Assembly (NCBI GenBank): GCA_029263395.1
Contig: JAJCXO010000036.1
Span: forward strand, 1,638-65,637
Length of the DNA stretch: 64,000 nucleotides
Reading direction: 5' to 3'
Source: Acidobacteriota bacterium
GTDB taxonomy: Bacteria > Acidobacteriota > Thermoanaerobaculia > Multivoradales > J023
Notes under the pieces: model-generated
Database searches by the model: none
What the model was told of the DNA's origin: nothing
Seen by the model: only the letters and a program-made list of their open reading frames with translations
Position numbers and translations under genes: made by a program
Shown here: positions 14,465-54,235 of the stretch, piece by piece
Position numbering within the stretch: position 1 is the stretch's first letter
How the letters are laid out: every line of letters starts with the position of its first letter

Positions 14465-14509
14465 AGTCTTCCTCCACTAGGCAGACGTGCCAGCCGCAAG
14501 AAAAGCGGG

Positions 14510-32378: not shown

Positions 32379-33983
32379 TTAGCCCAAGTCTTCTCTGAGG
32401 GCCGTCCGGTTGATCTTGCCGCTGCCGGTGCGCGGCAGTTCACCCCGAATCTCGATCCGCGACGGCACGGCATAAACCGACAAACGTTTTGCTGCGCCGC
32501 GCCTCAGGGCGTTGGCGTCAACCCTAGACCCTTCACGCAACAGCACCGCCGCAAAAATCGTCACTTGGCCTTCTTCGTCACGCAGGTCGACTGCGGCAGC
32601 TTCGGCAACGTCGGGCAACGCATTGAGCACAGCTTCCACTTCGTCGAGCTCGACACGATAGCCGCGGACTTTGACTAGGCGATCCCGGCGCCCCAGGAAA
32701 ATCAGATGGCCATCACCACGGTCTCGCACCAGATCGCCGGTGCGGTAGAAGACCTTTTCGAAGTCGGTAAATAGAACCTGGCGAAAGAACGCTTGTTGGT
32801 TGAGATCGGGACGCGCCCAATAGCCGCGCATCATGGTGGGAGCCCGAATCAGCAATTCGCCAGGTTCACCGGGCTCTACCGTGCGGTCCTCGCCATCAAC
32901 GATCAAACCTTCCGCACCGGGCCAGACCGGACCGATCGGGATCGACTGCTCGCGGTCGAAGTCGTCAGGGAGATGGTAGGCGGTACATTGGTTGACCTCG
33001 GCGGGGCCGTAGGAGTTCGAAAAACGAGCGTTCGGCCACAGCTCGGCCAGCCGCGCCAGATGTTTGGGGGCAAAAGGCTCGCCGCCGAAAAGCACCCAAC
33101 GCAGGCTGCTCAGATCACGGTCTTCGATCCCCCCCTGCTCGAGCAGCTGGATCAGCGCCAGCGGGACCGAGTACCAGAAGGTCAGCTGCTCCTGCTCGAT
33201 CAGCTCCGCCAGGCTGCGCGGGAACATGGTGACTTCCTCGGGAATAATCACGGTGGTTGCGCCACACAGCGGGCCGGTGAGGTATTCGAAGGTCGACATG
33301 TCGAAGTGCAACGGCGAGTGGTTGCCGAGTCGATCCGTAGGCATCACGCCGTACTCGCGGGCTGACAGCCGGGCATACGCAAGACCGCTGGCGTGAGTGT
33401 GCATCAATCCCTTGGGCACTCCGGTCGAACCCGAGGTATACATGATGTACGCCAGGTCTTGTTCGACCAGCTGGACCGCGGGGTCGACTCGCTGCACGGG
33501 GTCGACTCGCTGCACGGCCTCGACTACCGCATCGACGGCCTGCCAGGCAGTAAACGAGATCTTCGATTCGGCGGCAACGTTGGTGGGCGCGTCTGCTCCA
33601 ATGACATGTTGGAGCTCCGGCACATCCACCGCCACCCGGGCCACCTTACGGGCGTGCGACGGGTCGGTGATGAGATGCCGAATGCCACAGTCTTCGACGA
33701 TGAACTGCACCCGCGCCGGCGGTGCGGTCGGATCGATCGGTACGTAGGCAGCCCCTGCCTTGAGGATGCCATAAAGCGCCACCGGCAGCTCGAGGCATTT
33801 GTTCATGTAGATGCCGACGCGGTCGTGGGGGGCCACCCCCTGCTCTACCAGCACGTTGGCCAGGCGGTTGGCACGGTCCACCAGTTCGGCATAACTCAGG
33901 CTGCATCGCGCAAAACGGAACGCCTCGCGCTCAGGGTTGCGGTCTGCCGCCTCGTCGATCGAGTGATGGAGCAGAAAGCCCAC
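32379..33983 (-). CDS. stand-alone amino-acid adenylation enzyme (AMP-binding, DltA-like)
   Basis: A-domain core motifs are present: YIMYTSGSTGVPKG, NSYGPAEV, YRTGDLV, GRRDRLVKVRGYRVELDEVE and GSGKINR. Confidence 0.8.
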   Translation of the reverse strand: MGFLLHHSIDEAADRNPEREAFRFARCSLSYAELVDRANRLANVLVEQGVAPHDRVGIYMNKCLELPVALYGILKAGAAYVPIDPTAPPARVQFIVEDCGIRHLITDPSHARKVARVAVDVPELQHVIGADAPTNVAAESKISFTAWQAVDAVVEAVQRVDPVQRVDPAVQLVEQDLAYIMYTSGSTGVPKGLMHTHASGLAYARLSAREYGVMPTDRLGNHSPLHFDMSTFEYLTGPLCGATTVIIPEEVTMFPRSLAELIEQEQLTFWYSVPLALIQLLEQGGIEDRDLSSLRWVLFGGEPFAPKHLARLAELWPNARFSNSYGPAEVNQCTAYHLPDDFDREQSIPIGPVWPGAEGLIVDGEDRTVEPGEPGELLIRAPTMMRGYWARPDLNQQAFFRQVLFTDFEKVFYRTGDLVRDRGDGHLIFLGRRDRLVKVRGYRVELDEVEAVLNALPDVAEAAAVDLRDEEGQVTIFAAVLLREGSRVDANALRRGAAKRLSVYAVPSRIEIRGELPRTGSGKINRTALREDLG

Positions 33984-34010: not shown

Positions 34011-35162
34011 TTAGAGGCCGAGCAGGCTGGTGATGAGGCTGCGCTGGATATCCGAGGTGCCAGCGTAGATGACTCCACCGATCGAGTCGCGCAGTTGCCG
34101 TTCGACGCCGTGTTCCTCGAGATAACCCCGCGCCCCGTGGATTCGTACCGCGTCGGTCGCACATGCCAGCAGGGCTTCGGAAATATGCAGATTGGCCATC
34201 GCACATTCAATCCCGGCGTCTTCTTCTGCGTCTTTCATCGCCGCAACCTTGTACATCAGCAGGCGTGACGTCTCGAGTCGCAGACGCATGTCAGCGATGC
34301 GATTCGACACCGATTGGAAGTTGCCGATCGGCTGGCCAAACTGTCGACGCTCCTTGGCATATTTCAAACAGCGCTCGAACAGATGCTGCATCGCCCCGAG
34401 GTGGCCGGCGTGAATGAAGGCCCGCTCCCAGGAAATCGTCTGGGTAAACAGGCTCATGCCGATGCCTTCGCCACCGAGCAGATGTTCATCAGGAACAAAA
34501 CAATCCTCGAAGAGGAGGTCGCCCATCGGATTGGTGCGGGTACCAGTTTTGGCCCGCGGCTCACTCCGGGAGCAGCCGGGGCTGCTGGTTTCGACCAGAA
34601 ACGCGGAGACGCCCCATTTGCCAGACTCCGGGTCGGAGTTGGCGAGGACCAGCGCCAGATCTGCCACCGGCGCCATGCCGATATACATCTTGCGACCGTT
34701 GAGCAGATATCCGCCGTCTGTTTTGGTGGCAGTGGTCTGCAGACTCAAGGCGTCGGATCCTGAGGTTTCCTCGCTGACGCCGTGGCAGCCGATCCACTCG
34801 CCGGAACAGAGTCGTGGCAAAAATTTCTGCTTCTGCTCTTCGTTGCCGTAGATCAAAATCGGCTCTTGCACGCTCCAAGTCTGGCCACCAACCCCCAGGG
34901 TCAGACCGTTGTCGCGGCAACCGTAACCCAACGCCTCCAGGATCAAAACTGTGGTGACGGCGTCCAAGCCTTGGCCGCCATACTCGACGGGAATGTGGCT
35001 ACCCAAGATGCCCTGGGCGCCACAACGGTGCCAGTCCTCCCGCGGAAAGGTACTGGTCCGGTCGTGGTCGCGCAGCTGAGAACCGAGCTCGCTACGGGCG
35101 AACTCGAGCGTCTGCTCTCGGCGGGTTAACTGCTCTTCGTCGAAAGCAGGAGTCATAGTCAC
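34011..35162 (-). CDS. acyl-CoA dehydrogenase family protein
   Basis: The 383-aa protein has typical ACAD blocks: GCHGVSEETSGSD, YIGMAPVADL, the FQSVSNRIADM region and IYAGTSDIQ. Confidence 0.8.
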   Translation of the reverse strand: MTMTPAFDEEQLTRREQTLEFARSELGSQLRDHDRTSTFPREDWHRCGAQGILGSHIPVEYGGQGLDAVTTVLILEALGYGCRDNGLTLGVGGQTWSVQEPILIYGNEEQKQKFLPRLCSGEWIGCHGVSEETSGSDALSLQTTATKTDGGYLLNGRKMYIGMAPVADLALVLANSDPESGKWGVSAFLVETSSPGCSRSEPRAKTGTRTNPMGDLLFEDCFVPDEHLLGGEGIGMSLFTQTISWERAFIHAGHLGAMQHLFERCLKYAKERRQFGQPIGNFQSVSNRIADMRLRLETSRLLMYKVAAMKDAEEDAGIECAMANLHISEALLACATDAVRIHGARGYLEEHGVERQLRDSIGGVIYAGTSDIQRSLITSLLGL

Positions 35163-35267
35163 CTTTATATTTTAACATTCGTTGCCTGATCGAGCCTAGA
35201 CTGAATCGGACCCGATACAGTTGGCGAAGACACACTAAACAACCGGCAGACTTTGTGTCGGCCCGCG

Positions 35268-38200
35268 ATGTATTCACAGTTGGAGTTGCTATTGGACGTT
35301 CAGACAGAGCAGGAAACACCGCTGGCCCACAACCAGTTAGCGATCTGGATCGGGCAACAGCTGCATCGGGACAGTCCGCTCTACAACATGACGTTCGCTT
35401 GGATTTTCCAAGTAGATGTTCGCACGGATCTCTTTCAGCAAGCCTGGCAACGGGTCGCCGATGGCAGCGATGCCCTCAGGACCCAGATCGTGGAACGCGA
35501 CGGCGTGGGCCTGCGACGGATCAGCCCAGGAGGCAGCTGCCTCACGACGGTACTCGACTTACCACCCGATAGCGACAGCAACCCGGAAGCACACTTCCTC
35601 CGCTGGTGCCGCGAGCGCTGCGCTCGCCCCCTGAACTACGGCGACCAACTGGTCGACAGCGTGCTGGTCGAGCTCGGGGAGGGCAAAACAGGCTGGTATC
35701 TGAACCTGCATCATCTGATCACCGACGCGTCATCGACCGTCCTGCTCTACCGCCAAGTGGCGGCGGAGTATGCCGCATTGATCGACGGCAAGGCTCCGAT
35801 TCCGGTGCTCTATGACTACTATCCGACGTTGGCCAATCTGGCAGCCAAGACGCGGCCGTCGGACACCGCCCGCCAGCACTGGGCCGACCGGCTAAAGCGC
35901 CAGGATCGGTTGATTCCGTTGTACGGTCGTCAGGCCGAGCCGGTGGGGACGGCCAGTACCCGCTTAACCCTACAACTCGACCCGCAGCGCACGCGAGCAC
36001 TCGATCGGCTGTGCGCCGAAACCGGTTTCGCCAGCCTGTCGCGCAAGATGTCGCGTTTCGCTTTGTTTGCGACGCTGCTGCTGAGCTGGCTCCACCGGGT
36101 CAGCGGGCAGGCGGCTCTGGGTTTCGACGCACCGGTGAGCGGCCGCCCGACTGCCAAGTCCAAACGGGCTCTTGGCCTCTTCATCGAGATGTTCCCGTTC
36201 GCCGTGACGGTCGAGCCACAGGATACCTTCAGGACGCTCGGCGCCAAGTGCCTGGCGGAGGCTGAGCTTTTCCTGAGCCACGCCTTGCCTGGAACAAGCT
36301 CCCCCTCCGGTGCGGCCGCCAGCAACGTCGTGCTCAACTTCTTCCCCGACACTTTTGGCGACTTCGCTGGGACCCCGGCCGCGGTCGAGTGGGTCCATCC
36401 CGGTCACGGTGACAGCGTGCACGCATTGCGCCTCCAGGTTCACGACTTCGCCGGTTCGGGTGGCACCACTCTACATTTCGACTTCAATGATCGGGCGCTA
36501 TCGGATCGCCTGCGGCGTCGAAGTCTTCGGCACTTCGAGAGGATCGTCACGGCGCTGCTCGACGATGTGGATGGGCGCATTGCGGCCGTCGACATGCTGA
36601 CCGACGACGAAACCTTGGCCTTGGCAGAGCTGAATGCGACGGCGGGTTCACCACTGCCGGATCAAACGGTGGTCGAGATGTTCCTGGCACAGGCCGCAAC
36701 CAATCCCCAACGGATCGCGTTGCGTCAAGGTGAGGCAGAGCTATCGTTTGAGGATCTCCGTAGTCAGGCCGAAGCCTTGGCAGCCACGCTGGTTCAGGCT
36801 GGTATTACGCCAGGGGACGCTATTGCGCCAGGGGACGGTGCTACGCCAGGGGGCCGTGTCGGAATACTTTCCCGACGTTCGATGGATACCGTCGTCGCTA
36901 TCCTGGCGACGCTGCTGGCCCGCGCAGCGTACGTCCCGATCGACCCGGCGTATCCCCGGCAGCGCAGAGACCATATTCTCCATGACTCCGCGGCCTGTCT
37001 GGTGCTGGTCGGCGAGGACGTAGAAGCCCCTGCGGCGTCAGGCACAGCCTCGCGTAACCCGAACCCCGACGTCCCCGTCCTCTCGATCCGCGAGGGAATC
37101 CGCGCCGGACGGGATACACCATTCAACCGACCGCACCCAACGCTCGACGATCTCGCCTACGTGCTCTACACCTCCGGCTCTACCGGCCAACCCAAGGGGG
37201 TTTTGATCGAACATGGCGGACTTGCAGCCTATTTGCAGTGGGCGGAGCGCCAGTACGTGCGCGGAGACCGGCTGCGATTCCCGCTGTTCACCTCGCTGTC
37301 GTTCGACTTGACCGTCACCAGCCTATTTCTGCCGTTGATCACCGGCGGGGTGCTGGAGATTTATCCTGAGCCGGCCGGCCCCGTTGACTCGGCGCTGATG
37401 GACGTCGTCCGAGCCAACGCTGTCGACTTCATCAAACTCACCCCGTCCCATCTTTCGCTGCTGCTGCAAATGAACCCGACCCCATCGCAGCTCCGGCGTA
37501 TGGTGATCGGTGGCGAGGATCTGAAGACGCAACTGGCGACCGAAGTCAGCGCTCGGTTTGGAAATTCACTCGAGATCACCAACGAATACGGGCCGACGGA
37601 AGCGGTTGTGGGCTGTATTGCCCACCGTTATGACCCCGCGGTCGACGATGATCTTCGGGACCCTAGTCCTCGGGTTCCGATCGGGGTGCCGGCGGATCAT
37701 GTCCAGATCGAGATCCTGAATGCGGCACAATCGCCGGTACCGGAGGGGGTTCCAGGGGAACTGTGGATCTCTCGTTACGGTCTGGCCCGTGGCTATCAAG
37801 GCCTCGACGAGTTGACGGCTGAACGGTTTCAGGCCCGCCCGCAGCACAGCAACGGGCGGCGCTACCGGACGGGTGATCGGGTGCGCATGGTGAGTCCAAA
37901 CAAGCTTGAATATTTGGGACGTCTCGATCGGCAGTTGAAGATTTCAGGCTTTCGCGTCGAGCCGGCAGAGATCGAAAACGCCTTGTTGTCGCTGCCCGGA
38001 ATCGAGCAGTGCGCGGTGATCGCACGCCGGCGCACCGCCTCCCCGTCCAAGGAGCGCTTGGACCGTGCAGACGGTCAGCCGAGCAGTGACGGCCTGACGG
38101 GCACGGCAGACCTGACGAGCACTGTAGCCCTGTCGAGAACGGCAGACCCGACGTGTATTCGGTGCGGCCTACCGTCGAGCCACCCTCGTGCAGTCTTCGA

Positions 38201-39692
38201 TCGCCAGGGAGTCTGCAGCGTCTGTCGTTCCTATGAGTCGATCAAGGAGCACGCTCGAGGCTATTTCAAGACCATGGACGACCTACGCGAGATATTCGCC
38301 AGGTCTGCCCAGGCAAAAACTAGCAGCCCACCGTACGATTGCATGATGCTGCTCAGCGGCGGTAAAGACAGCACCTACGCGCTGTGTCGGTTGGTCGAGA
38401 TGGGCTTATCGGTTTATGCCTTCAGCCTCGACAACGGCTTTATCTCCGAAGAAGCCAAAGACAACATTCGCCGAGTGACCGGACAACTCGGCGTGCCGGT
38501 TGAACTCGCCACAACACCGGCGATGAACGCCATCTTCAGGGACAGCCTGACCCGTTTTGCCAACGTCTGCCAGGGCTGTTTCAAGACGATCTACACCTTG
38601 AGTACCCAACGGGCTCATGCGTTGGGGATTCCGATCATCGTCACCGGGCTGTCGCGCGGGCAAATGTTCGAAACCCGACTGACCGAGGAGATGTTTCGCG
38701 ACGGTCGGTGTAGCCCCGAAGAGGTTGACGCCGCGGTGCTGGCGGCGCGCAAGGTTTACCACCGACTCGACGACGAGGTCTCCCGTTCGCTGGATGTACG
38801 GATCTTTCAGGACGATCAAATCTTCGAGCAGATCCAGTATGTCGACTTCTATCGCTATTGTGATGTCGGCCTGAGTGAGCTCCATACCTATCTCCAGCGT
38901 AAGGTGTCCTGGGTACGCCCGCGGGATACTGGACGCTCGACCAATTGCCTGATCAACGATGTCGGGATTTATGTCCACAACCGACAGCTCGGTTACCACA
39001 ACTATGCCCTGCCCTATAGCTGGGACGTGCGCATGGGCCACAAAACCCGGGACGAAGCCCACGACGAGCTCAATGACAGCATCGACGTCGGGTTCGTGCG
39101 CAAAACGTTGGCCGAGATCGGCAGCGATGTCGAAGGCTTGACCGCCGACGGCAGCCAGCCACAGCTGGTCGCGTTTTATGTGGTTTCAAAAGATGCCGTT
39201 TCGAAAGACGCCGTTTCGAAAGGCCTGTCCGATGACGAGCTTCGTCGACAGCTTGCCGAGCGTCTGCCGGCACCTTTCATACCAGCTCATCTCCAGCGGA
39301 TCGACACCATCCCACTAACTGCCCACGGCAAAGTTGATGAACAAGCCTTACCAGCCATCGAACACATTCGGCTCACCGAGGCACAGTACCGGCCGCCCGA
39401 AGGCCCGGTTGAGGAATATCTCGCCAACGTCTGGCAAGAACAGCTCGGCACTACCCGGGTCGGCGCCGACGATAGCTTCTTTCAGCTCGGCGGTACGTCG
39501 CTCGGCGCGATGGAGGTCATGATCCGCCTATGCCAGGAATACGACATCGACCTGCCATTGGAAACGTTGTTCTCGCATCCGACCCTCGGCAAGCTGGCCC
39601 GCGTCGCCGAAGACCGGATCATGGCGGACATCGATGCCTTGACCGAGGACGAACAGCAAAACCTAATCGTTGAAGGCGAGCTTCTCGGTTGA
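35268..39692 (+). CDS. NRPS module C-A-T whose A domain is interrupted by a Zn-ribbon/PP-loop ATPase domain
   Basis: The C domain has HHLITDA. The A domain has YVLYTSGSTGQPKG, NEYGPTEA, YRTGDRV and GRLDRQLKISGFRVEPAEIE, then a ~377-aa insert, then LVAFYV, LPAPFIPA and AHGKVD. The T domain has FFQLGGTSL. The ORF opens with TTG at 35253, and the first ATG is at 35268. Confidence 0.85.
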   Translation: MYSQLELLLDVQTEQETPLAHNQLAIWIGQQLHRDSPLYNMTFAWIFQVDVRTDLFQQAWQRVADGSDALRTQIVERDGVGLRRISPGGSCLTTVLDLPPDSDSNPEAHFLRWCRERCARPLNYGDQLVDSVLVELGEGKTGWYLNLHHLITDASSTVLLYRQVAAEYAALIDGKAPIPVLYDYYPTLANLAAKTRPSDTARQHWADRLKRQDRLIPLYGRQAEPVGTASTRLTLQLDPQRTRALDRLCAETGFASLSRKMSRFALFATLLLSWLHRVSGQAALGFDAPVSGRPTAKSKRALGLFIEMFPFAVTVEPQDTFRTLGAKCLAEAELFLSHALPGTSSPSGAAASNVVLNFFPDTFGDFAGTPAAVEWVHPGHGDSVHALRLQVHDFAGSGGTTLHFDFNDRALSDRLRRRSLRHFERIVTALLDDVDGRIAAVDMLTDDETLALAELNATAGSPLPDQTVVEMFLAQAATNPQRIALRQGEAELSFEDLRSQAEALAATLVQAGITPGDAIAPGDGATPGGRVGILSRRSMDTVVAILATLLARAAYVPIDPAYPRQRRDHILHDSAACLVLVGEDVEAPAASGTASRNPNPDVPVLSIREGIRAGRDTPFNRPHPTLDDLAYVLYTSGSTGQPKGVLIEHGGLAAYLQWAERQYVRGDRLRFPLFTSLSFDLTVTSLFLPLITGGVLEIYPEPAGPVDSALMDVVRANAVDFIKLTPSHLSLLLQMNPTPSQLRRMVIGGEDLKTQLATEVSARFGNSLEITNEYGPTEAVVGCIAHRYDPAVDDDLRDPSPRVPIGVPADHVQIEILNAAQSPVPEGVPGELWISRYGLARGYQGLDELTAERFQARPQHSNGRRYRTGDRVRMVSPNKLEYLGRLDRQLKISGFRVEPAEIENALLSLPGIEQCAVIARRRTASPSKERLDRADGQPSSDGLTGTADLTSTVALSRTADPTCIRCGLPSSHPRAVFDRQGVCSVCRSYESIKEHARGYFKTMDDLREIFARSAQAKTSSPPYDCMMLLSGGKDSTYALCRLVEMGLSVYAFSLDNGFISEEAKDNIRRVTGQLGVPVELATTPAMNAIFRDSLTRFANVCQGCFKTIYTLSTQRAHALGIPIIVTGLSRGQMFETRLTEEMFRDGRCSPEEVDAAVLAARKVYHRLDDEVSRSLDVRIFQDDQIFEQIQYVDFYRYCDVGLSELHTYLQRKVSWVRPRDTGRSTNCLINDVGIYVHNRQLGYHNYALPYSWDVRMGHKTRDEAHDELNDSIDVGFVRKTLAEIGSDVEGLTADGSQPQLVAFYVVSKDAVSKDAVSKGLSDDELRRQLAERLPAPFIPAHLQRIDTIPLTAHGKVDEQALPAIEHIRLTEAQYRPPEGPVEEYLANVWQEQLGTTRVGADDSFFQLGGTSLGAMEVMIRLCQEYDIDLPLETLFSHPTLGKLARVAEDRIMADIDALTEDEQQNLIVEGELLG
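36804..36857 (+). repeat. in-frame 18-bp x 3 tandem repeat inside the A domain (ITPGDA/IAPGDG/ATPGGR)
   Basis: ATTACGCCAGGGGACGCT ATTGCGCCAGGGGACGGT GCTACGCCAGGGGGCCGT. Confidence 0.8.
38030..39160 (+). other. inserted domain: CxxC...CxxC Zn ribbon plus PP-loop (SGGKDS) N-type ATP pyrophosphatase, PseA/WbpG/WbuX-like
   Basis: CIRCGLPSSHPRAVFDRQGVCSVCRSY lies at 38154-38234. YDCMMLLSGGKDSTYAL contains SGGKDS at 38355-38372. Confidence 0.65.
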
Positions 39693-39699
39693 GGCTGAC

Positions 39700-40242
39700 T
39701 CAGCTGTCGTTCCGCTGTGACTCGACCCGGATCCAATTCCGTCCACCCTTCCTTAGCTTGCAGAGGCGACCGTCATCAAACCGTGCATGCGCTACAAAAA
39801 CGTGCTTCCCTGGCTTGAGCACAGATGTCGGCAGACGGAGTCCCCAGCCGCTGGCCTCCAATCCTGGCTTGGCGGCGAGCCGTCGAATATCCGACCGTGG
39901 CAAATCGACTCGCGCCAATTCCCGCAGCGGCCTGCCATTCATCGACACCATCACCGCCTGCGCGGGTCGGTCGAACCGCGGATCGAACGCCCAACCCCAG
40001 ATCATCACACCGCCGTTCGCATCCAGCCGAACCCCATCCACGTAACCACACTTCACCCCTTCGACCAGCCTTTCTGCGGTGATCTCTGACATCGACGCAA
40101 GAATTGAAGAACTCTCCAGAGGCTGGACCCACGCAGCACCCGGGCGGGCACCGCTGAGCCACAAGAGCCCTCCTACGGCAAACACGGAGAACAGCAACAA
40201 GCCGATGGCCAGCACGCTTTGGGGCTTTGTATCGCGTCGCAT
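39700..40242 (-). CDS. membrane-anchored hypothetical protein (180 aa)
   Basis: An N-terminal TM segment (VLAIGLLLFSVFAVGGLLWL) is followed by a beta-rich extracytoplasmic domain. I recognise no family. Confidence 0.5.
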   Translation of the reverse strand: MRRDTKPQSVLAIGLLLFSVFAVGGLLWLSGARPGAAWVQPLESSSILASMSEITAERLVEGVKCGYVDGVRLDANGGVMIWGWAFDPRFDRPAQAVMVSMNGRPLRELARVDLPRSDIRRLAAKPGLEASGWGLRLPTSVLKPGKHVFVAHARFDDGRLCKLRKGGRNWIRVESQRNDS

Positions 40243-40521: not shown

Positions 40522-42273
40522 TTGAAACCGATCATGCAGAAACCGATGACGGCAGCAGCCGATAACCAGCGCTGGCTCGACTCTCCATCGTTGTGGATCC
40601 CCGTCGCAGTGGTGCTGGGAGCCATCGTTCGCCTAGCGATCGCGCCCCATTTCGATTTCTACGGCGACGAGTTCTTCACCCTGGAGTGGTGCCAGAAGTC
40701 GTTTCGAGAAATCCAATCGAGCTTTGGCCCCGGGATCACGATGCATCTCTACATCCTCCTGATGAAGGGATGGGGAACGCTCGTGGGCTATTCACCATGG
40801 ACCATGAAACTCCCTTCGTTGGTTGCCGGTATTGCACTGATTCCGCTGCTGGCCCGCTTGGGCTCCAGGTGGTTCAATCACCAGGCCGCGGCGGTTGCGA
40901 TCGCCATCTTGGTCACCAGCAGCCCGCTCATCAACACCGCGAGGACGGCAAGAGTGTATGCCCTACTCGCGCTGGGTGTTGTCGTCTCGATGATGATATT
41001 CTCTCGCGCCCTGCGGACTGGCTCCGTTAAATATCTATTATTGAATGCCATAGTCAACGCGAGCCTCATGGCCTTGTCGTTACATGCGGTGTATATCTTT
41101 ATTATCCAAGCGGCGAGTGCTGCCCTCGAATTTCTCTGCCCTCCCAGAATCTCGTTCCGTCGCTTGGCAGGTCTCGCCGCAAGCCTGGGTTTGTCGGCTG
41201 TTTTATCCTTGCTTTTTTACTCTGGCGCGCTCCCCAAAATTATTGCACTCTTCACCGCCTCGTCGGTCTCGACCAGTGCATCTGTGATGCTGTCGAGCCC
41301 ACTCCAATATCGCCCCAAAGTCTTCTTACAACTGTGGCTGCCGTTTTCTTGGAATCACGCGGCTTCGCCAGTGATCATGCTGTTATGCCTGGCGCTCGGA
41401 GTTTTTGTTGCCTGTCGTTGGTATGGAGCTCGCGGGCGACTACTGGTCTTGTGGGCGGTCATTCCACCTTTCTTCTACCTTATCGTCCCCTTCGGCTTTG
41501 TGCCGGATAGCATCGCTCGGTATCTCGTCCCGGTGGTAGCTGCCCAGATCCTCTTGGTCGCCTTGGGTGCTCTTTGGATCGTTCAACTCGTACCTTTCGG
41601 CAAACGACTTTCACCGACATTCGCTTTTTCTATCGCGTTGATTTTGACCCTGATACCCAACGCATTCCGGAACCAGCTATTTATTCAGTCAGAGCCAAGC
41701 AGTCTGACTCTCCGTCACGTGGCCGAAATTGCACAACCCGGTGACGTGGTGACCAGTTATCCAGGCCACTACCAAGCGATGATCGATCTGCATCGTGATC
41801 TGAACGGCGGCCAGCTCTCTGCCTTGGTCAACCAACCGTCGCTACCGGCCCCAGGAAGATTGATCATCATCCTCCGATCCGTTCCCAAAGTAAAAAATTG
41901 GTGGCTAGAGTATTTTGAGGGCTATCAGGTGGGCGGCCCAGGGTACACACACAACATTATTGTTTTAGTTTCTCCACGCCTATCTCCCGGCCCCAAGGCG
42001 TTGATCGAACCGATGCACCACTTCTACTATGGCTTTCTGAAAACGATGGCAACAGAGGGCACGTTACATCGTTATCCAAGTATCCAACTCGGGCTACTCA
42101 GGCGTGTCCATAGCCGCCTCGCACGACTTGCTGACCTGGCGGGCAATAATAAAGAGTACCAGGAGCATCTTCTGCTGGTACAAAACCCGGAGTCATGGCT
42201 GATAAAACCCTTTGATTCCCCAGAAATCATGAAGGTGCTGGACCGCGACGGATCTCAAGCAACCGTTCGGTAA
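40522..42273 (+). CDS. GT-C fold membrane glycosyltransferase (family 39/83, ArnT/PMT-like)
   Basis: There are more than 10 predicted TM segments. FDFYGDEFFT sits in the first extracytoplasmic loop (a DE motif). The ORF starts with TTG at 40522, and an alternative ATG lies at 40534. The gene is visibly A/T-richer than its neighbours. Confidence 0.55.
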   Translation: MKPIMQKPMTAAADNQRWLDSPSLWIPVAVVLGAIVRLAIAPHFDFYGDEFFTLEWCQKSFREIQSSFGPGITMHLYILLMKGWGTLVGYSPWTMKLPSLVAGIALIPLLARLGSRWFNHQAAAVAIAILVTSSPLINTARTARVYALLALGVVVSMMIFSRALRTGSVKYLLLNAIVNASLMALSLHAVYIFIIQAASAALEFLCPPRISFRRLAGLAASLGLSAVLSLLFYSGALPKIIALFTASSVSTSASVMLSSPLQYRPKVFLQLWLPFSWNHAASPVIMLLCLALGVFVACRWYGARGRLLVLWAVIPPFFYLIVPFGFVPDSIARYLVPVVAAQILLVALGALWIVQLVPFGKRLSPTFAFSIALILTLIPNAFRNQLFIQSEPSSLTLRHVAEIAQPGDVVTSYPGHYQAMIDLHRDLNGGQLSALVNQPSLPAPGRLIIILRSVPKVKNWWLEYFEGYQVGGPGYTHNIIVLVSPRLSPGPKALIEPMHHFYYGFLKTMATEGTLHRYPSIQLGLLRRVHSRLARLADLAGNNKEYQEHLLLVQNPESWLIKPFDSPEIMKVLDRDGSQATVR

Positions 42274-43094
42274 CTCCGCAGGAGATGCAGCAGCACCCCG
42301 AGGCGCTGCGCGGCACTGAGCTCGCGAAAAGTTTCAATCTGCGAGTTTGTGCCGGTATAAAGCCTTAGGCGTTGGGCGCGTTGCCTGGCGTGCTCGAACT
42401 CCAGATGGGTAATCTTCATCGAAGGACGATAGGCCATCCTCAAGTCGGGGCGACGCACGGCCAAGCGGTGAACAAACTCGCTGTCGCCAGCGCGTTGCCA
42501 CGTTTCGAACGGCCCCAACTCGTCGAACAGAGAAGCCCGAACCGCCATGTTGTTGCAGTACGCAAAATGGTGGGCGGCGGCGCAGCGACTGATCACATAG
42601 TCGGTTCTTGCATTCTCGTAGGCGCCTAGCCATCGCAGCGCAAGCGACGCCGTGGTTGGGTATCGACAATGTCCAACCAGCACCGCAGTCTGTGGCTCCC
42701 GCAAGCCTGCCAGGATCGACCGCAGCCAATCAGAATCAACGACGCAGTCGGCATCAGTGAAGGCAATCACAGGAGCGCTCGCGTGTTGGATAGCCGTGTT
42801 GCGCGCCGCGTAGGCACCGGGAGTCGACTCGCTGAGTGATATCACCTCGGGATAACCCTGGACGATGGTCGCGGAAGTATCGGACGATCGATTGTCGACG
42901 AGAATGATCTCGTACGGCGCCGGGCAGTCTTCCTGCGCGAGCAGCGATTCGATACATGCCGCAAGCGTGCGCTCGCTGTTGTAGAACGGCACCACCACCG
43001 AGATGCAAGGGTGCTCAGTCTTGCCACGTAACTCAGTCTTGCCACGCAACTCAATGCTGCTACGTAACTCAGTCTTGCCTCGTAACTCAGTCAT
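42255..43094 (-). CDS. family 2 glycosyltransferase with an N-terminal hexapeptide repeat
   Basis: ISVVVPFYNSERTLAACIESLLAQ...IILVDNRSSD...FTDADC is a GT2 signature. The N-terminus reads MTELRGK TELRSS IELRGK TELRGK. Confidence 0.8.
   Translation of the reverse strand: MTELRGKTELRSSIELRGKTELRGKTEHPCISVVVPFYNSERTLAACIESLLAQEDCPAPYEIILVDNRSSDTSATIVQGYPEVISLSESTPGAYAARNTAIQHASAPVIAFTDADCVVDSDWLRSILAGLREPQTAVLVGHCRYPTTASLALRWLGAYENARTDYVISRCAAAHHFAYCNNMAVRASLFDELGPFETWQRAGDSEFVHRLAVRRPDLRMAYRPSMKITHLEFEHARQRAQRLRLYTGTNSQIETFRELSAAQRLGVLLHLLRSYRTVA
43015..43093 (-). repeat. in-frame 18-bp x 4 tandem repeat at the 5' end of the GT2 gene
   Basis: Plus strand: CAGTCTTGCCACGTAACT, CAGTCTTGCCACGCAACT, CAATGCTGCTACGTAACT, CAGTCTTGCCTCGTAACT. 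Confidence 0.85.
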
Positions 43095-44119
43095 GCCGCA
43101 TGCTCACGCAGTCGTGTGTAGAGGTCATGCCGCAAGGCTTGACTCGCCCACTCTCCCTGGGCTGCGGTCAAAACCTGCTCAGACGTACCAGAGCGGCGGA
43201 CGCCTCGGTCGACACCAGCTTTCCAGGTTTCCTCTGGGGTGACCAGCTGACTGGAGCTCTGGCCATATCGCTCGAGGATTTCGGGATCCCACGCCAGGCC
43301 GAGGTCCTGGAGGAGTCGTTCGAGGGTCGACTCGGGCTGGGAGGTCAGGTCTTCATAGACAACGAAGTGATCGTTAGCCACCGCGTTAGCCTTTTGGACC
43401 CGACTCAACGAGAAGCGAACGTCTGCGTTCCAGCGTTCAACACAGGTTTCCAGATCATACGGGTGTTGCCAATGTTTGGAAGCCTTGTGCAATGAAGCAA
43501 CGGTCTCCAATCCATCACGGACGACGTGCACGAAGTCGGTGCGTGTCTTGGGGCCAGCCAGCTTTTCGAGGAATGGGATGTAACGCAGGTGCTTCGGTGT
43601 CTTTTCGACCCATGTCGACTGCCCCCTGGACAATGCCAACTGGTCGAGAACTCGTAACAGCTGCTGTGCCACTTCGCGGGTGCGGAAAGGTAGCAACAAC
43701 CTGGTGGGCTCTCCTTCGACAAGAGAAGCCCACGCACCATCTCCCATCACACCAGCAATGCTGGAGGCGTCGAAGTCGTTCTCGGCCAGGAACTCGACCA
43801 GGCGCGACTTGGGATTCTTCGTCAAGATGACCGACGACCCAGGCAATAGCTTGAAGTGGCGGCTGAAGAAATGGCTTTCGGTGAACGACGTCACCTCACT
43901 ATGCGCGGCTAGCAGGCTCTGGACCAAGGTGGTGCCGGAGCGTGGCACTCCGACGACGAAGATCCGTCGTTTCACCTCGGTAGGCTTCTTGAGAGTACCG
44001 TGAGTCACGAGATCACGCGCCAACTTTGATAGCGACCAGAGTGAAGAACGGGCGGAAGGAGGGTGCCAGCCGCTCCGCGAGTCCGACGATACCCCGCCCG
44101 TAACCACCACGGTAGACAA
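43091..44119 (-). CDS. sulfotransferase family protein
   Basis: RIFVVGVPRSGTTLVQSLL is a 5'-PSB PAPS-binding loop. Starting at ATG 44119 would overlap the upstream gene by 107 nt. An in-frame GTG at 44008 would remove the overlap. Confidence 0.7.
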   Translation of the reverse strand: MSTVVVTGGVSSDSRSGWHPPSARSSLWSLSKLARDLVTHGTLKKPTEVKRRIFVVGVPRSGTTLVQSLLAAHSEVTSFTESHFFSRHFKLLPGSSVILTKNPKSRLVEFLAENDFDASSIAGVMGDGAWASLVEGEPTRLLLPFRTREVAQQLLRVLDQLALSRGQSTWVEKTPKHLRYIPFLEKLAGPKTRTDFVHVVRDGLETVASLHKASKHWQHPYDLETCVERWNADVRFSLSRVQKANAVANDHFVVYEDLTSQPESTLERLLQDLGLAWDPEILERYGQSSSQLVTPEETWKAGVDRGVRRSGTSEQVLTAAQGEWASQALRHDLYTRLREHAA

Positions 44120-44786
44120 TCTTCTCGGAGCAAAAACCGACCCGGCTGAGAAAGTCCGAAACCTCGCGGGTGGTGTATTCCCTCACATGCCCCATATGCC
44201 CCAACGTCTCGAGCTTCTCGTACTGACGGTATACACCGGCGGATGCTGCATGGCCTTGGTTGTGGAGCAACAGATTGCGGATGCCGCGGAAGGACCGCAG
44301 GTTGGGAGTCGACAGCAACAGCACGCCACCCGGTTTCAACACTCGGCACACCTCGCGCAGCGTCAGGATCGGATTGATTCTGAGATGCTCGAACAGCTCG
44401 TTGAAGACGATTGCGTCGAAGGTCTCGTCCGCAAAGGGTGCCGGCTCGGTCTCGAGGTTACATTGCCTGACGTCGATCCCCAGGCTTGTGATGGCCGCCA
44501 TGAATCGCTCAGGCGCCAGGTCGACAGCGCTGACCTCGTAGCCAAGCTCGACCAGTACGCCGGTCATCAACAGCGGCACCGCTCCACACTCCAGGACCCG
44601 TGCCCCCGGTTCGACATGCTGCTCGATGATCCGTAGATCCGCGGCGAGTCGAGTCCGATGTTGCTGCCGATAGCCCGCGAACCACTTCCCGAGGGCAGCA
44701 TCATCCGGCTCGATGTTCGAGGCGATCGCGTCGAGCAACCGATAGCTCCGCTCCGGAAATCGCCACGGTTCGGATTCTTTCAACAT
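44013..44786 (-). CDS. class I SAM-dependent methyltransferase
   Basis: VLECGAVPLLM is motif I-like. FDAIVFNELFEHL and VLKPGGVLLLSTPN are also present. Confidence 0.75.
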   Translation of the reverse strand: MLKESEPWRFPERSYRLLDAIASNIEPDDAALGKWFAGYRQQHRTRLAADLRIIEQHVEPGARVLECGAVPLLMTGVLVELGYEVSAVDLAPERFMAAITSLGIDVRQCNLETEPAPFADETFDAIVFNELFEHLRINPILTLREVCRVLKPGGVLLLSTPNLRSFRGIRNLLLHNQGHAASAGVYRQYEKLETLGHMGHVREYTTREVSDFLSRVGFCSEKIVYRGGYGRGIVGLAERLAPSFRPFFTLVAIKVGA

Positions 44787-44805: not shown

Positions 44806-47800
44806 TCATGGCTGCCCCAGATCACTGAGGTGGTGCAAGATCTGCTCTTTGGCAGTCCGGACTGACCCTTCGTCCAGGTGCGGATCCGGAGTTTGGTGGA
44901 CTGTGAACGGACCTTGAAAATAGGGACGCCAAGTTGCCGCAGCATCAGTTGCGGGCTCCCGAGCGTTGAAGATGACCGTCGGCGTGCGAAGGATACCGGG
45001 TTGGTAGTGGGAGTGGAGACGAAACCGCTCCAACCGCACATCAGCGTGGAGAATCTGCGCCGTCAGCGGCAATCCGGCGAGGCCGCGTAGCCGCCCGATC
45101 CAACACAGCAGCCGACGCCACGGCTGGATCGCAAGGTATCGCCAGAGACGCTGGTAGGCACGCCGAGTGAGTGGATGGTTGTCACGGGCAAACCGTTGGA
45201 TCGCCTGTCCGAGAGACAGCTCTTCGACCGGTTGACGCAGGCCATCGATCTGCAGACGGCAGGGGCCGAAGCGATAGAAGTCGACCGGCATCGGCGCAAT
45301 CAAGATCAGGCGTTCCACCGGGATCCCACGCTCCTCCATCAGGCGAACCGCTTCGACCGCCATGGTGGCGCCGAAAGAATAACCCGCCATGATGATCGCT
45401 TGGTTGGGAAAACGGCGACAGACTTCTTGCACCAACTCGTCACCCAGCTCTCGCATCGTCCGCCATCGACCCCGGTTGCCCTCCGGTCGCAGGCTGACCC
45501 CACGCAGGCCATACACCGGCCGCTCACCGCGGAATCGGGTTGCAACCATCTCCGAAAAGAAGTGGGGCACGCAAAAGAGAAACGGCGTCTGCCGTCCTCC
45601 CGGCTGGATCGGAAAGAGATGCGAATAGGTGGGTGCTCCGGAATCGCTGCGCTGCTCGATCCGCTGAGCCAACTCTCGCACCGTCGGATGCTGAAAAACC
45701 TCCGCTGGCGCCAACACGGCTCCGAAGTCTCGCTCGATGGCGGTCGTCATCTCGACAACGAGCAGCGAATGCCCACCGAGTTGAAAGAAGTTGTCGGAGG
45801 AGCGGATTCCGGGCCGTCCCAGCAACCCCTCCCACAGTGAGATTAATGCCTGCTCACGTTCGTCGAGCACTGGAGGATCGGAGGTCTGCAACCCCTCCAC
45901 AAGTGTCGCCTCGGGGTCCAAAACCATTTTGCGGAGCCGGTTGCGATCAACCTTGCCGTTCGGCAAAGTCGGCAACTCAGCAAGCTCGACGAGTCGAGCC
46001 GGGACCATAAAGTCCGGCAGACGTTGGGCCAACCGTTCCCGCCAGGACTCCGCGACGGTTGCAGTCGGAACCGTATTGGGCGGCACCGTTACGGGCACCT
46101 CGACAAACGCGACCAACTGAGTTCCCTCACGCACTACAACAGCAGCCTTCTCGACTTCGGGGAGTTCAAGCAGGACTGCTTCGATCTCACCAGGTTCGAT
46201 GCGAAAGCCACGCAGCTTGATCTGGTCGTCGACGCGCCCCAGGAACAGCAATCTTCCATCGTCCGTCCAACAGAGGCGGTCGCCAGTGCGGTACATCCGG
46301 ACGTCTGGTTCGGCTCTCGGACCCGGTTCAATGGGACGTCTGAGGAAACGTTCGTCGGTCAGGTCTTGGCGTCGCCAGTAGCCCTCGGCTAGGGTTGGTC
46401 CAGAGATCCAGCCTTGGCCTGGAATTCCAGCCGGTACCCGGCGCCCCATCCCATCCAACACGTCAACTCGCACGCCGGGTATCGGACCACCGATCGCAAC
46501 GGAGCGTCCGGCATCTTCAGGTTTGATCTCGTGCACCGTCGCCCATACCGTCGCTTCGGTTGGCCCGTACTCGTTGTACAGGCGAGTTTGTGGAAGCTGT
46601 TGGAAATGCGCTTCGACTAGCGACGGAGGACAGCTTTCACCGGCGACAATCACCGTGTCGAGCCCCTGCAATTGCTCTGTCCCCATGTCCAACAGGTGGC
46701 TGTAGAGTGATGGCACACAGAGCAGGCTGGTAACCTCGGCTTCGATAATCAGCTGCGCTAGACGACGCGGGTCGCCCGCTTCCTCATCGGTTGGAATGAC
46801 CAGTGCCCCGCCCGTCGCCAGCGTCCAGAAGAGCCCCGCAACCGAACTGTCAAAAGCGATGCTCGACAACAACAAGAAACGCTTCGGCGGCGTGTTATAC
46901 ACCTGGGAACGCGCCCCGTTCGAGACGCTCAAGTTGCCGTGCGTAATCACGACCCCCTTGGGGCGCCCGGTCGAACCCGAGGTGTAGAGGATGTAGGCTG
47001 GATGCTTAGCCTGCAGGTCAGGTCCTAGGATGCCCTCCGTCGATTTGTCCTCCAAGCTGCCGACCGCGAGGGTGTCGACGTCAATGATGAACGGTACCTG
47101 AGTAGGCAACCGATCATGCAGAGCGGAACTGGTGAGGACGGCTACCACTTCGGCATCCTCGAGGACGTCTCGATTCCTGGCCGACGGATACGCCGGGTCC
47201 AGTGGCACATAGGCAGCACCTGCCCAGTGGCTGCCGAGGAGACCGGCAATCATCCACGGCGAGCGATCGAGAAACAGCCCCACTCGGTCCCCGGGCTGTA
47301 CGCCGCGATGGGTCAACTCACGAGCAATACAGCGTGCGATGCGGGCCAACTCGGCATAACTCCAGTGTTCATCACCGCTGATCACCGCCGAAGCCCGTGG
47401 CAAACGAAGGGCTTGGGCACGAATCTGCTGCGGCAGGAACGAATCCTCGGTCTCGGTTGTGGGTGCCCCTTGCGCCCAATCGCGCAGCACGCCAGCCTCC
47501 TCCAGAGGCAGCATCGGCACCTCAGCCGTCTGTCGCTCGAGATCGTCCGCCAGATGCTCGATCAGGGTTTGGTAGTGACCGAGCAGATTCTGCATCCAGA
47601 CTTCGTCGAAACGATCCGTACGATACTCGACCGCAATCTCGAGCGAAGGTGCACCCTCCGTCTCGGGGCGCTCGGTAACGGACCGTTCGGTTACAAACAG
47701 GGTCAGATCAAACTTCGACTCGCCTAGATCCAAGGTGATCGGTTCGAGTCGAACCCCTCCCATCTCCGGCGATGGTGGCGTCTCTTGGTAGACGAACATC

Positions 47801-49232: not shown

Positions 49233-49354
49233 TCCCCGAGCCGGAAATGGCGAATCTGGGGATGGCTCAAATTTGATGGTGACTGGTCCTATCGGAACGC
49301 TTGGCGATGTTACGATCACCGACCGATGCGATGAGCGCCCCGCCACACACCCCA

Positions 49355-50530
49355 ATGCGAATTCTAGAGATCGAAACCTTCGGTCGCGGTGGACTCACGC
49401 ATTATGCCTACAATCTGTCGAGGGCGCTGGCCGAGCGTGGCCATCAGGTCACCATGGTGACCGCTGCTGCCTTTGAGCTCGAAGGGCGACCCGACCAGCC
49501 CAACGTCGAGATCATCACAACGATTGCACGCGGCAGCCATCGGCTGAGACGCCTACCATGGGTGCAGAAGATATTCCGCAAGTTCGAAGCCATCTTCGAC
49601 GCCCTGGCCGTGACCAGGTTGGCGCACCGTCTCCGCCCAGACGTGATTCATATCCACTGCACCAATCCGATTGTGCTGGTCTACCTCAGTGCCTTGCAGA
49701 GACTGGGACACCCCCTGGTTGCCACTGCCCACGTCGTGACACCCCATGAGCGGATCCGCTGGCAAAAGGTCATCTACCGACGCATCCACAAGCTCGGCCA
49801 ACTGATCATCGCCCACTCACAATTCGACCAGCAACGTTTGCTGCAGGAATTCTCCGTCGACGCGAAGCGGGTGACGGTGATTCCCCATGGCGAATACAGT
49901 TTCTTCGAGGGCGGCGGGGAAAAGACCGATCGCAGAGCGGCTCGGGAAAGCCTTGGCCTCGAACCACAGGATAAGGTTGCATTGTTCTTCGGCTACATCC
50001 GAGAGTACAAAGGCCTCGATGTGCTGTTCGAAGCCTGGTCCACGGTTGCGGAGGCGCAGCCAGCAGCACGCCTCGTCGTCGCTGGCGATCCAGTTCAACT
50101 CGGTGCGGAGCGACGTGACGAGTTGGAGCGCTGGGCGACAGACCTGGGGGCAATCCATCACTTCGGCTACATCCCTTTTTCTGAGGTAGCACAGTACTTC
50201 GCGGCCGCCGACGTGCTTGTCATGCCGTATCGCCACATCAGCCAGTCCGGCGTGCTGTACCTCGCGCTGTCGCTCGGCGTACCCGTCGTCGCCACCCGGG
50301 TGGGAGCACTGCCGGAGATGTTGCAAGATGGCGACAGCGCACTCCTGGTACAGCCGGAATCACCCCGTGCTCTCGCACAAGCTTTGATCCGGGCACTCGG
50401 TGATGCCAGCCTGCGACTTCGACTAGCCCAGGGCGGCCTACGAGTTGCAGAAGAACACTCCTGGCCGTCGATCGCTGAACAGACCGAAGGTGCATTCAGA
50501 AAGCTCGTCGATCAGCGAGACAACACCTGA
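49355..50530 (+). CDS. family 4 (group 1) glycosyltransferase
   Basis: MRILEIETFGRGGLTHYAYNLSRALAERGHQV is a typical GT4 N-terminus, so I prefer ATG 49355 to the ORF-track start at 49301. The C-terminal region has PYRHISQSGVLYLALSLGVPVVAT. Confidence 0.8.
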   Translation: MRILEIETFGRGGLTHYAYNLSRALAERGHQVTMVTAAAFELEGRPDQPNVEIITTIARGSHRLRRLPWVQKIFRKFEAIFDALAVTRLAHRLRPDVIHIHCTNPIVLVYLSALQRLGHPLVATAHVVTPHERIRWQKVIYRRIHKLGQLIIAHSQFDQQRLLQEFSVDAKRVTVIPHGEYSFFEGGGEKTDRRAARESLGLEPQDKVALFFGYIREYKGLDVLFEAWSTVAEAQPAARLVVAGDPVQLGAERRDELERWATDLGAIHHFGYIPFSEVAQYFAAADVLVMPYRHISQSGVLYLALSLGVPVVATRVGALPEMLQDGDSALLVQPESPRALAQALIRALGDASLRLRLAQGGLRVAEEHSWPSIAEQTEGAFRKLVDQRDNT

Positions 50531-53414: not shown

Positions 53415-53417
53415 ACT

Positions 53418-54197: not shown

Positions 54198-54235
54198 GCC
54201 GAGTCAGGAATCCCAGATCACGTTGGCCCCGACTG

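Follow-up and report, generated by a model that had tools for sequence, protein, structure and literature searches.

A putative AMDH domain interrupts the adenylation domain of a nonribosomal peptide synthetase in an Acidobacteriota bacterium

Introduction

What does an ATP pyrophosphatase do inside the adenylation (A) domain of a nonribosomal peptide synthetase (NRPS)? The question is raised by a 64,000-nucleotide stretch of an Acidobacteriota genome (assembly GCA_029263395.1, contig JAJCXO010000036.1; hereafter, the window), in which a single open reading frame (ORF) at 35253..39692 (+) encodes a 1479-residue NRPS whose A domain is interrupted by a Zn ribbon and a PP-loop. As judged from sequence comparison, the insert belongs to the aminomutase/amide dehydratase (AMDH) family found in the synthetases CysH and AlbIV, and it probably converts asparagine bound to the adjoining thiolation (T) domain.

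An earlier note on this DNA had likened the insert to N-acetyl sugar amidotransferases (NASATs), suggested that it could couple amino-acid activation to amidation or amidine formation on a sugar or on the tethered substrate, and knew of no other A domain with a PP-loop insert. The claim of novelty does not stand. A 2020 census of interrupted A domains contains methyltransferase inserts only; PP-loop-interrupted asparagine A domains have nevertheless been known since the work on albicidin and cystobactamid, where the AMDH of CysH and AlbIV was published, and many orphan homologues are already in the literature. The remaining claims are taken up below.

Results

The NRPS ORF contains no stop or frameshift along its 1479 codons, and its first ATG lies at 35268. 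All features of this gene are on the + strand. Matches to Pfam and NCBIfam models define a condensation (C) domain (residues 19-329; 35307..36239) with the motif HHLITDA at 153-159, an AMP-binding domain (479-848), AMP-binding_C (1305-1360) and PP-binding (1388-1450), and the amino-acid adenylation model TIGR01733 matches residues 499-922. From these matches and the motif positions, the A core (36687..38030) runs through motifs A1-A8 and the first strand of the A_sub subdomain, with the specificity code D-L-T-K-V-G-E-V-G-(K). Motif A8 (GRLDRQLKISGFRVEPAEIE) occupies residues 889-908 and the next strand, CAVIARR, residues 920-926. The rest of A_sub (39165..39362) resumes with LVAFYVV (from 1305) and continues through A9, LPAPFIPA (1338), and A10, AHGKVD (1357). 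The T domain (39414..39602) follows, with the phosphopantetheine-bearing Ser1416 in GGTS (39498-39500). The A_sub region between the post-insert strand and A9 also contains an in-frame tandem duplication, SKDAV-SKDAV-SKG (39186-39224).

Between A8 and A9 lies the insert, 378 residues long (927-1304; 38031-39164), so that the interruption of about 377 residues placed by the earlier note at 38030-39160 is borne out, as is the order of its motif landmarks. The insert comprises an N-terminal linker (927-967; 38031..38153), which is poorly conserved and modelled with low confidence; the AMDH domain (968-1290; 38154..39122), identified by its match to CysH, by the family model TIGR03573 and by the 8WEX fold; and, from motif positions, a C-terminal linker (1291-1304; 39123..39164). 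The domain opens with a tetracysteine Zn ribbon of the form CxxC-x16-CxxC (C968, C971, C988 and C991, within CIRCGL...QGVCSVC, residues 968-991; 38154..38225), followed by the PP-loop SGGKDS (1035-1040; 38355..38372), which is invariant in all 93 embedded family members examined. By these motifs, the insert is a Zn-ribbon and PP-loop ATP pyrophosphatase at the classical a8-a9 insertion site.

The AMDH, also described as an alpha-ANH-like domain, is present in AlbIV of the albicidin pathway and CysH of the cystobactamid pathway (PMC7966384). Proposals for the domain date from 2014-2015, and reconstitution in vitro and in vivo followed in 2021 (PMC7966384; see also the reviews PMC8949500 and PMC12283262). 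The 38-kDa domain of CysH, which Gross et al. named AMDH, is 69% identical to the AlbIV domain, and CysH preferentially loads L-Asn (Gross et al. 2021, PMC7966384). After longer incubation, Asn bound to the T domain of CysH undergoes a loss of 18 Da, corresponding to beta-cyano-L-alanine, and this loss is not observed with AMDH-less CysH; deletion of the AMDH in a heterologous producer eliminates all isoasparagine and cyanoalanine linkers (PMC7966384). The same study defined seven conserved core regions, SGGKD among them, had no structural template for the domain available in 2021, and found purified CysH to be dark brown (PMC7966384).

The insert closely resembles this domain. BLASTP against the CysH AMDH (sequence from the source data of PMC7966384) gives 50% identity over 332 residues (E 2e-124), and the two have in common CxxC...CxxC, SGGKDS, NVCxGCFKTIY, GLS[RK]GQxFETRL, DTGRSTNC and YHNYxLPYSWDVRMGH. 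The code of the host A domain, DLTKVGEVGK, is nearly identical to DLTKIGEVGK as read from the CysH and AlbIV sequences. Because of the identity to the CysH AMDH and this near-identical code, the insert is assigned by comparison to the AMDH family, in an orphan clade already noticed by Gross et al. Their list of 23 AMDH homologues, none linked to a metabolite, includes Algoriphagus halophilus, Pricia antarctica, Lewinella, Microvirga, Gemmatimonadetes and a Verrucomicrobiae strain (PMC7966384); several genera and two species, A. halophilus and P. antarctica, recur in the genome scan described below. The N-terminal C domain sets the window's protein apart from the stand-alone A-AMDH-T build of CysH and AlbIV. 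The stand-alone build is a trait of the two characterized members and not of the domain family, most database members of which are C-A(AMDH)-T.

The code was read in the register of a GrsA fragment that matches 1AMU exactly, from the segments FDLTVT, IKLTPSHL, MVIGGE and NEYGPTEAVVG; MAFFT placed the last code position one residue off, on the neighbouring Cys, where the ungapped register reads V-G. The link to the albicidin and cystobactamid literature came from a full-text search for the string DLTK[VI]GEVGK, and DLTKIGEVGK has been tied to cyanoalanine (Cya-3; PMC12283262). The pattern K-[V/I]-G-E-[V/I] at positions 278-330 is retained in about 74 of 75 aligned related loci, which suggests that a single amino acid is activated throughout the family. 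Between the host A core and those of AlbIV and CysH, identity is 38-41% (41% for AlbIV), compared to 31-33% for the second A domain of the window. The code of the host A domain accords with the predicted specificity for L-Asn.

The closest curated family to the insert is the NASAT family. Its tetracysteine motif and SGGKDS fit the published NASAT motif, defined as CXXCXn[GN]XCXXC (PMC10607449). Searched alone, the insert aligns with model positions 3-317 of 344 in TIGR03573 (WbuX, N-acetyl sugar amidotransferase) at E 4.1e-34 and 118.5 bits, well outside what chance would give; the second-best family reaches just E 1.7e-5. Neither Pfam nor NCBIfam holds a model for the AMDH domain, and Pfam gives a weak QueC match at the PP-loop alone.

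AlphaFold2 was run on residues 891-1376 with an alignment of 72 sequences. The model of the insert and its flanks has a mean predicted local distance difference test (pLDDT) score of 87.2 and a predicted template modelling (TM) score of 0.84, with low confidence limited to the N-terminal linker (pLDDT <55 at model residues ~41-70) and the last residues. Strands are predicted on either side of the insert, as A_sub would require, consistent with closure of A_sub around it. Foldseek against the Protein Data Bank (PDB) identifies the NASAT LpNASAT (8WEX) as the best match (E 1.4e-11, target TM 0.55-0.57, ~365 columns), followed by TtuA-type sulfurtransferases, YcfA, LarE and asparagine synthetase B (AsnB), with 5WMM lower. 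The predicted fold and the 2024 NASAT structure together place the AMDH firmly within a NASAT-like PP-loop clade. The Zn-ribbon and SGGxDS layout described in the earlier note is therefore confirmed by motifs, family match and fold, and the model search and structure prediction that it had suggested both recover a PP-loop protein.

The AMDH domain contains a second set of conserved cysteines. C1106 and C1109 form a CxxC in NVCQGC (38568..38579), and C1232 lies in DTGRSTNC (38946..38948). This triad is present in all 93 embedded domains, CysH included, and in all 119 stand-alone relatives. A further eleven residues are invariant only in the embedded clade: N1104, K1111, R1135, E1140, R1142, R1166, H1170, R1228, W1257, D1258 and K1264 (insert positions 137, 144, 168, 173, 175, 199, 203, 261, 290, 291 and 297). 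Their restriction to the embedded clade makes them candidates for binding asparagine as the phosphopantetheinyl thioester (Asn-S-Ppant).

The stand-alone relatives, proteins of 330-410 residues whose annotations read QueC, TilS or hypothetical, come from Bacillus plasmids, Streptomyces and metagenomes. Like the insert, they have the Zn ribbon, PP-loop and triad, and their TIGR03573 scores are likewise below the family cutoff. One of them is encoded on a Bacillus pseudomycoides plasmid (L087, 7932-8954), where the gene adjoins those for an S66 peptidase, a pyridoxal phosphate-dependent aminotransferase, a gltX paralogue and a major facilitator superfamily transporter. A homologue search seeded with a stand-alone Bacillus relative returned the hypothetical/QueC/TilS family and nothing from Ruminiclostridium. 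On a plasmid of Streptomyces sp. NBC_01216 (NZ_CP108680; L084, 14932-17112), an AMDH-like domain 40% identical to the insert does not interrupt an A domain but is fused N-terminally to a condensation domain; asnB and a gene for a 619-residue NRPS lie just upstream of this fusion, and a tyrosine 2,3-aminomutase gene is nearby.

Upstream of the NRPS lie two conserved partners, an AMP-binding fatty-acyl ligase (32379..33983, -) and an acyl-CoA dehydrogenase (34011..35162, -). Across 80 related genome loci, the AMDH module is nearly always the first after the fatty-acyl ligase, usually with an acyl carrier protein (ACP); the acyl-CoA dehydrogenase is found in 34 of the 49 loci of at least 18 kb and a HupE/UreJ_2 membrane protein in 29 of the 49. 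Since fatty-acyl ligase and ACP genes precede the AMDH module in most of these loci, the C domain of the window's NRPS is probably a lipo-initiation (starter) domain. In most cases a second C-A-T module comes next, often accompanied by a GT1 glycosyltransferase; here it is a C-A-T-thioesterase (TE) module at 44806..49026 (-). Genes for the ACP and the HupE/UreJ_2 protein, searched for in the window, are absent, unlike in most related loci. In their place after the NRPS, the window has a 180-residue ORF (39700..40242, -) that matches no family but is retained in its two nearest loci (L003 and L004).

Between the two modules are genes for a PMT_2-like membrane protein (40522..42273, +), a GT2 glycosyltransferase (42255..43094, -) and a sulfotransferase (43091..44119, -), and this block (40522..44119) is syntenic in the same two loci. 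An S-adenosylmethionine (SAM)-dependent methyltransferase (44013..44786, -) is 70% identical to its counterpart in a further syntenic locus, L002. Beyond the second module, a GT4, a Wzx-like flippase, an EryCIII-like GT1, a second sulfotransferase and a GT2 occupy 49301..55366 on mixed strands; the GT4, flippase and GT1 are syntenic in the closest loci, mostly from Acidobacteriota metagenome-assembled genomes (MAGs; L002, L007-L011, L014 and L016). The cassette of fatty-acyl ligase and ACP followed by C-A(AMDH)-T recurs across phyla, whereas the glycan and sulfation genes are common only to the closest, mostly Acidobacteriota, loci.

A cyanobacterial order that would place the GT1 within module 2 ('A2 GT1 T') was considered and rejected, because the GT1 has an ORF of its own, read in a different frame. 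Five cyanobacterial loci (L022, L023, L030, L032 and L052) have a split module 2, with a C-A gene, a separate EryCIII-like GT1 and then a T-containing gene, and their first-module protein carries an extra C domain after T (C-A(AMDH)-T-C, ~1830-1890 residues). At the edges of the AMDH locus on a Roseovarius pelagicus plasmid (L083, 1-301) are hisH and sialic-acid-type genes, including an acylneuraminate cytidylyltransferase; these probably belong to a neighbouring nonulosonic-acid cluster and are not NRPS partners.

The domain is widespread. A scan of one genome per species found it in at least 454 species, including cultured Adonisia turfae, Neolewinella xylanilytica, Algoriphagus halophilus, A. 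halophytocola, Euzebyella, Gelatiniphilus, Wocania, Pricia antarctica and Microvirga; among the matches listed, Acidobacteriota MAGs come nearest to the window, with up to 87% identity. With the CysH AMDH characterized and the domain carried this broadly, the architecture is neither rare nor uncharacterized, an outcome that the earlier note had itself named as one that would defeat its idea. The database search for the same architecture that it had called for was run at several levels. A search with residues 900-1370 returned more than 600 proteins, of which the best 120 are 45-73% identical and span both junctions. An exhaustive search of 50%-identity representatives returned 572 clusters at E <=1e-30; most of the best 150 of these are proteins of ~1350-1500, ~1850 or 2300-3100 residues with the domain at about residues 830-1320. 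Identity of the insert between members from different phyla is 54-82%, which is high for an NRPS domain, and about 90 alignment columns are invariant, the whole PP-loop included. In two contigs from long-read MAGs (L001 and L002), frameshifts break the homologous NRPS gene into two or three called genes; as a result, many AMDH modules are entered in databases as fragments under the names 'acyl carrier protein' or 'AMP-binding protein', and short contigs are a second cause of short entries.

Elsewhere in the window, a 3344-residue ORF (15777-25811) with Kelch, LVIVD, DUF11, DUF7507 and GEVED domains presumably encodes a giant surface protein. It is flanked by two Ser/Thr protein kinases fused to long tetratricopeptide repeat arrays (11879-15307 and 25852-29232), one of which adjoins a gene for an extracytoplasmic function sigma factor. 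A 947-residue protein with a C-terminal caspase (Peptidase_C14) domain is encoded at 5617-8460; upstream of it are ORFs without a family match and a gene for a FadL/TodX-like outer-membrane protein (3906-5549).

Discussion

By analogy with CysH, the interrupted protein is likely to open a lipopeptide assembly line of two modules, in which L-Asn is loaded and the AMDH converts the T-bound residue in cis. The reaction would involve: activation of L-asparagine by the A domain and loading onto the downstream T domain; action of the AMDH on the asparaginyl thioester, with ATP spent at the PP-loop to activate the oxygen of the side-chain carboxamide; and loss of the activated oxygen to give beta-cyano-L-alanine, or rearrangement to isoasparagine. 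This could take place on the T domain of the first module before the starter C domain N-acylates the residue or afterwards. That C domain would attach a fatty acyl chain, which the neighbouring acyl ligase would provide and the acyl-CoA dehydrogenase would modify. The C-A-T-TE module would then add a second residue and release the product. The glycosyltransferase, sulfotransferase, methyltransferase and flippase genes probably serve to decorate and export it. From gene context, the product is thus probably an N-acyl-(cyanoalanine or isoasparagine)-X lipodipeptide, here glycosylated, sulfated or methylated and then flipped.

Enzymes of the PP-loop class adenylate the oxygen of a carbonyl group, with AMP and PPi as the released products; NASAT does so on an acetamido group, and QueC on a carboxamide that is to become a nitrile. 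Since such enzymes act on carbonyl oxygens and the nearest relatives of the AMDH are NASATs, the simplest chemistry would be adenylation of the side-chain amide of Asn at its oxygen, with AMP then eliminated. The albicidin scheme, unlike this one, was originally drawn with phosphorylation and dephosphorylation (PMC7966384). For isoasparagine, one possibility, which is pure speculation, would be a succinimide-type thioester exchange between the alpha- and beta-carbonyls.

Several considerations weigh against this assignment of function. An identity of 50% to CysH leaves room for a diverged activity, and that the window's domain acts like the CysH AMDH, that it proceeds by adenylation and that it leads to this final product are all inferred by analogy. 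The assignment of the code to Asn derives from published code tables and CysH loading assays. CysH and AlbIV are stand-alone A-AMDH-T proteins that hand their residue over in trans, whereas the window encodes a C-A-T lipo-initiation module; moreover, CysB is absent from the window and no CysJ-type hydroxylase is recognized among its annotated genes. No member of the orphan clade has been tied to a product, and the CysH work did not dissect the ATP requirement or see the aminomutase step directly in vitro (PMC7966384). Finally, the invariant cysteine triad and the brown colour of CysH suggest a metal cofactor, which a scheme of adenylation and elimination leaves unexplained.

This last point leads to the first of the alternatives, that the insert is an Fe-S-dependent thioamide synthetase like CtaC, which would exchange sulfur for an amide oxygen on the T-bound substrate. 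CtaC acts on substrates bound to a peptidyl carrier protein (PCP), and its Fe-S ligands are Cys154, Cys157 and Cys284, with PP-loop residues D77/S78 (PMC6772006). The invariant CxxC...C triad of the insert (C1106, C1109 and C1232) stands at almost the same distance from D1039/S1040, in a comparison of spacing and not of aligned sequences. Similarly, the best PDB sequence match to the insert is [4Fe-4S]-LarE (8CNZ; E 2e-8), whose CxxC aligns with C1106/C1109, and CXXC-C is an Fe-S signature of LarE homologues (PMC9283937); TtuA, YcfA and LarE are also among the best fold matches, and purified CysH is brown. Set against this, the CysH products and intermediates contain no added sulfur and the observed change is -18 Da, and the family resembles NASAT far more closely than it does TtuA or LarE. 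Although 8WEX and a WbpG-like NASAT lack the triad, a canonical NASAT encoded beside hisH and hisF (L086) carries CxxC...C at the same positions, so the triad is not by itself a sign of sulfur transfer. Sulfur chemistry in the insert is accordingly judged unlikely. By its conservation, the triad may instead be a candidate metal site, not necessarily one for sulfur chemistry, and an Fe or Fe-S cofactor in the AMDH is plausible given the triad and the colour of CysH.

The second alternative is the one favoured by the earlier note, an amidotransferase of the NASAT type in which an amide carbonyl (of an N-acetyl sugar, an N-acyl bond or the Asn side chain) is adenylated and the AMP is then replaced by ammonia, leaving an amidine. 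In its favour, no family other than TIGR03573 matches strongly, and the alignment takes in nearly the full length of that model; the top structural match is 8WEX; the tetracysteine motif of NASATs is present along with the PP-loop; and glycosyltransferase genes are nearby. However, the 118.5 bits of the insert fall below the curated cutoff of 203.2, where true NASATs score 275 and 338, so the proposed kinship holds for the closest curated family and solved fold and does not extend to membership in the family. In both canonical NASAT genes examined, which are on plasmids, hisH and hisF (or hisF2) directly adjoin the NASAT gene; here, no HisH/HisF pair matches in the window (E <=1e-3) and none is found in the 49 related loci of at least 18 kb. 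Because no such ammonia donor accompanies the insert, a role in sugar amidine formation is unsupported. In addition, the glycan genes are confined to the closest loci while the fatty-acyl ligase-ACP and NRPS context spans phyla, and the characterized CysH homologue dehydrates or isomerizes Asn and yields -18 Da, not an amidine. This alternative is quite improbable.

It is very improbable that the insert is a degenerate or structural remnant without catalysis, in a module that simply incorporates Asn: nothing favours this directly beyond the observation that AMDH-deleted CysH still loads Asn, and the conservation of the insert across phyla, its ~90 invariant columns with an entire PP-loop, and its confidently predicted fold all argue against it. 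An assembly chimera or hidden frameshift joining two genes, which the frameshift-split homologues in some long-read MAGs might bring to mind, can be excluded in practice, because the uninterrupted ORF has equal GC content at third codon positions inside and outside the insert (0.729 and 0.718), the in-frame order Acore-insert-AsubC-T (reference domains mapped) recurs in nearly all of the 80 loci, with the same junctions in finished genomes and hundreds of full-length proteins, and the Roseovarius pelagicus plasmid carries the domain within one RefSeq coding sequence, labelled only 'non-ribosomal peptide synthetase'.

A broader proposal can be advanced only tentatively, and is more doubtful than the assignment of the module itself. 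The AMDH and its stand-alone relatives may form a distinct NASAT-like clade with a second metal site (CxxC...C, maybe [4Fe-4S]) that serves a non-redox, non-sulfur dehydration or rearrangement of amides; separately, the lipo-initiation clade, in at least 454 species of roughly ten or more phylum-level lineages, may make undescribed N-acyl cyanoalanine or isoasparagine lipopeptides, here glycosylated and sulfated. The cassette of acyl ligase, ACP, acyl-CoA dehydrogenase, HupE-like protein, C-A(AMDH)-T and C-A-T is among the more widely distributed orphan NRPS families and may be a source of nitrile-bearing lipids. AMDH modules are now named only 'non-ribosomal peptide synthetase', 'AMP-binding protein' or, as fragments, 'acyl carrier protein'; a dedicated AMDH model would let genome-mining tools predict cyanoalanine or isoasparagine, and the invariant triad gives concrete mutants for work on the mechanism.

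Comparison with named systems places the insert closest to CysH. There, an AMDH of ~340 residues sits in an Asn-specific A domain followed by T; SGGKDS, the Zn ribbon, the triad and every conserved motif are held in common, and the codes are nearly identical. The partners differ: in its pathway to a para-aminobenzoic acid-oligomer antibiotic, CysH is accompanied by a hydroxylase (CysJ), a methyltransferase (CysQ) and a shuttle protein (CysB), whereas the window encodes a cluster of two modules with many genes for glycosylation and sulfation. AlbIV (NRPS-2*), from the albicidin pathway of Xanthomonas albilineans, has the code DLTKIGEVGK and an A core 41% identical to that of the window, and its insert is likened to the present one by published description (Cociancich et al. 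2015, as conveyed in PMC7966384, PMC8949500 and PMC12283262).

More distant systems share either the site or the chemistry. The methyltransferase-interrupted A domain TioS A4-M (5WMM) is interrupted at the same a8-a9 site and tailors a T-bound aminoacyl thioester in cis, with a guest SAM methyltransferase that is unrelated to the PP-loop ATPase of the window. QueC (7-cyano-7-deazaguanine synthase) also has a PP-loop, and in its second half-reaction it uses ATP to turn a carboxamide into a nitrile. Its likeness to the insert, as reflected in the weak Pfam match at the PP-loop, is limited to the nucleotide-binding core, and its substrate is a free deazapurine. CtaC of closthioamide biosynthesis resembles the insert in its PP-loop (AANH), Zn-binding residues and three similarly spaced cysteines, and acts only on amides tethered to a carrier protein (PMC6772006); in contrast to the insert, it operates in trans, inserts sulfur and comes from anaerobes. 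The NASATs (WbpG, WbuX and LpNASAT; TIGR03573; 8WEX) share with the insert an N-terminal Zn ribbon, SGGKDS, the overall fold and a substrate that presents a carboxamide oxygen. They differ in their HisH/HisF partner, their nucleotide-sugar substrate and their amidine product, where the family of the insert would act on a carrier-bound amino acid and, in CysH, gives a nitrile or an isomer.

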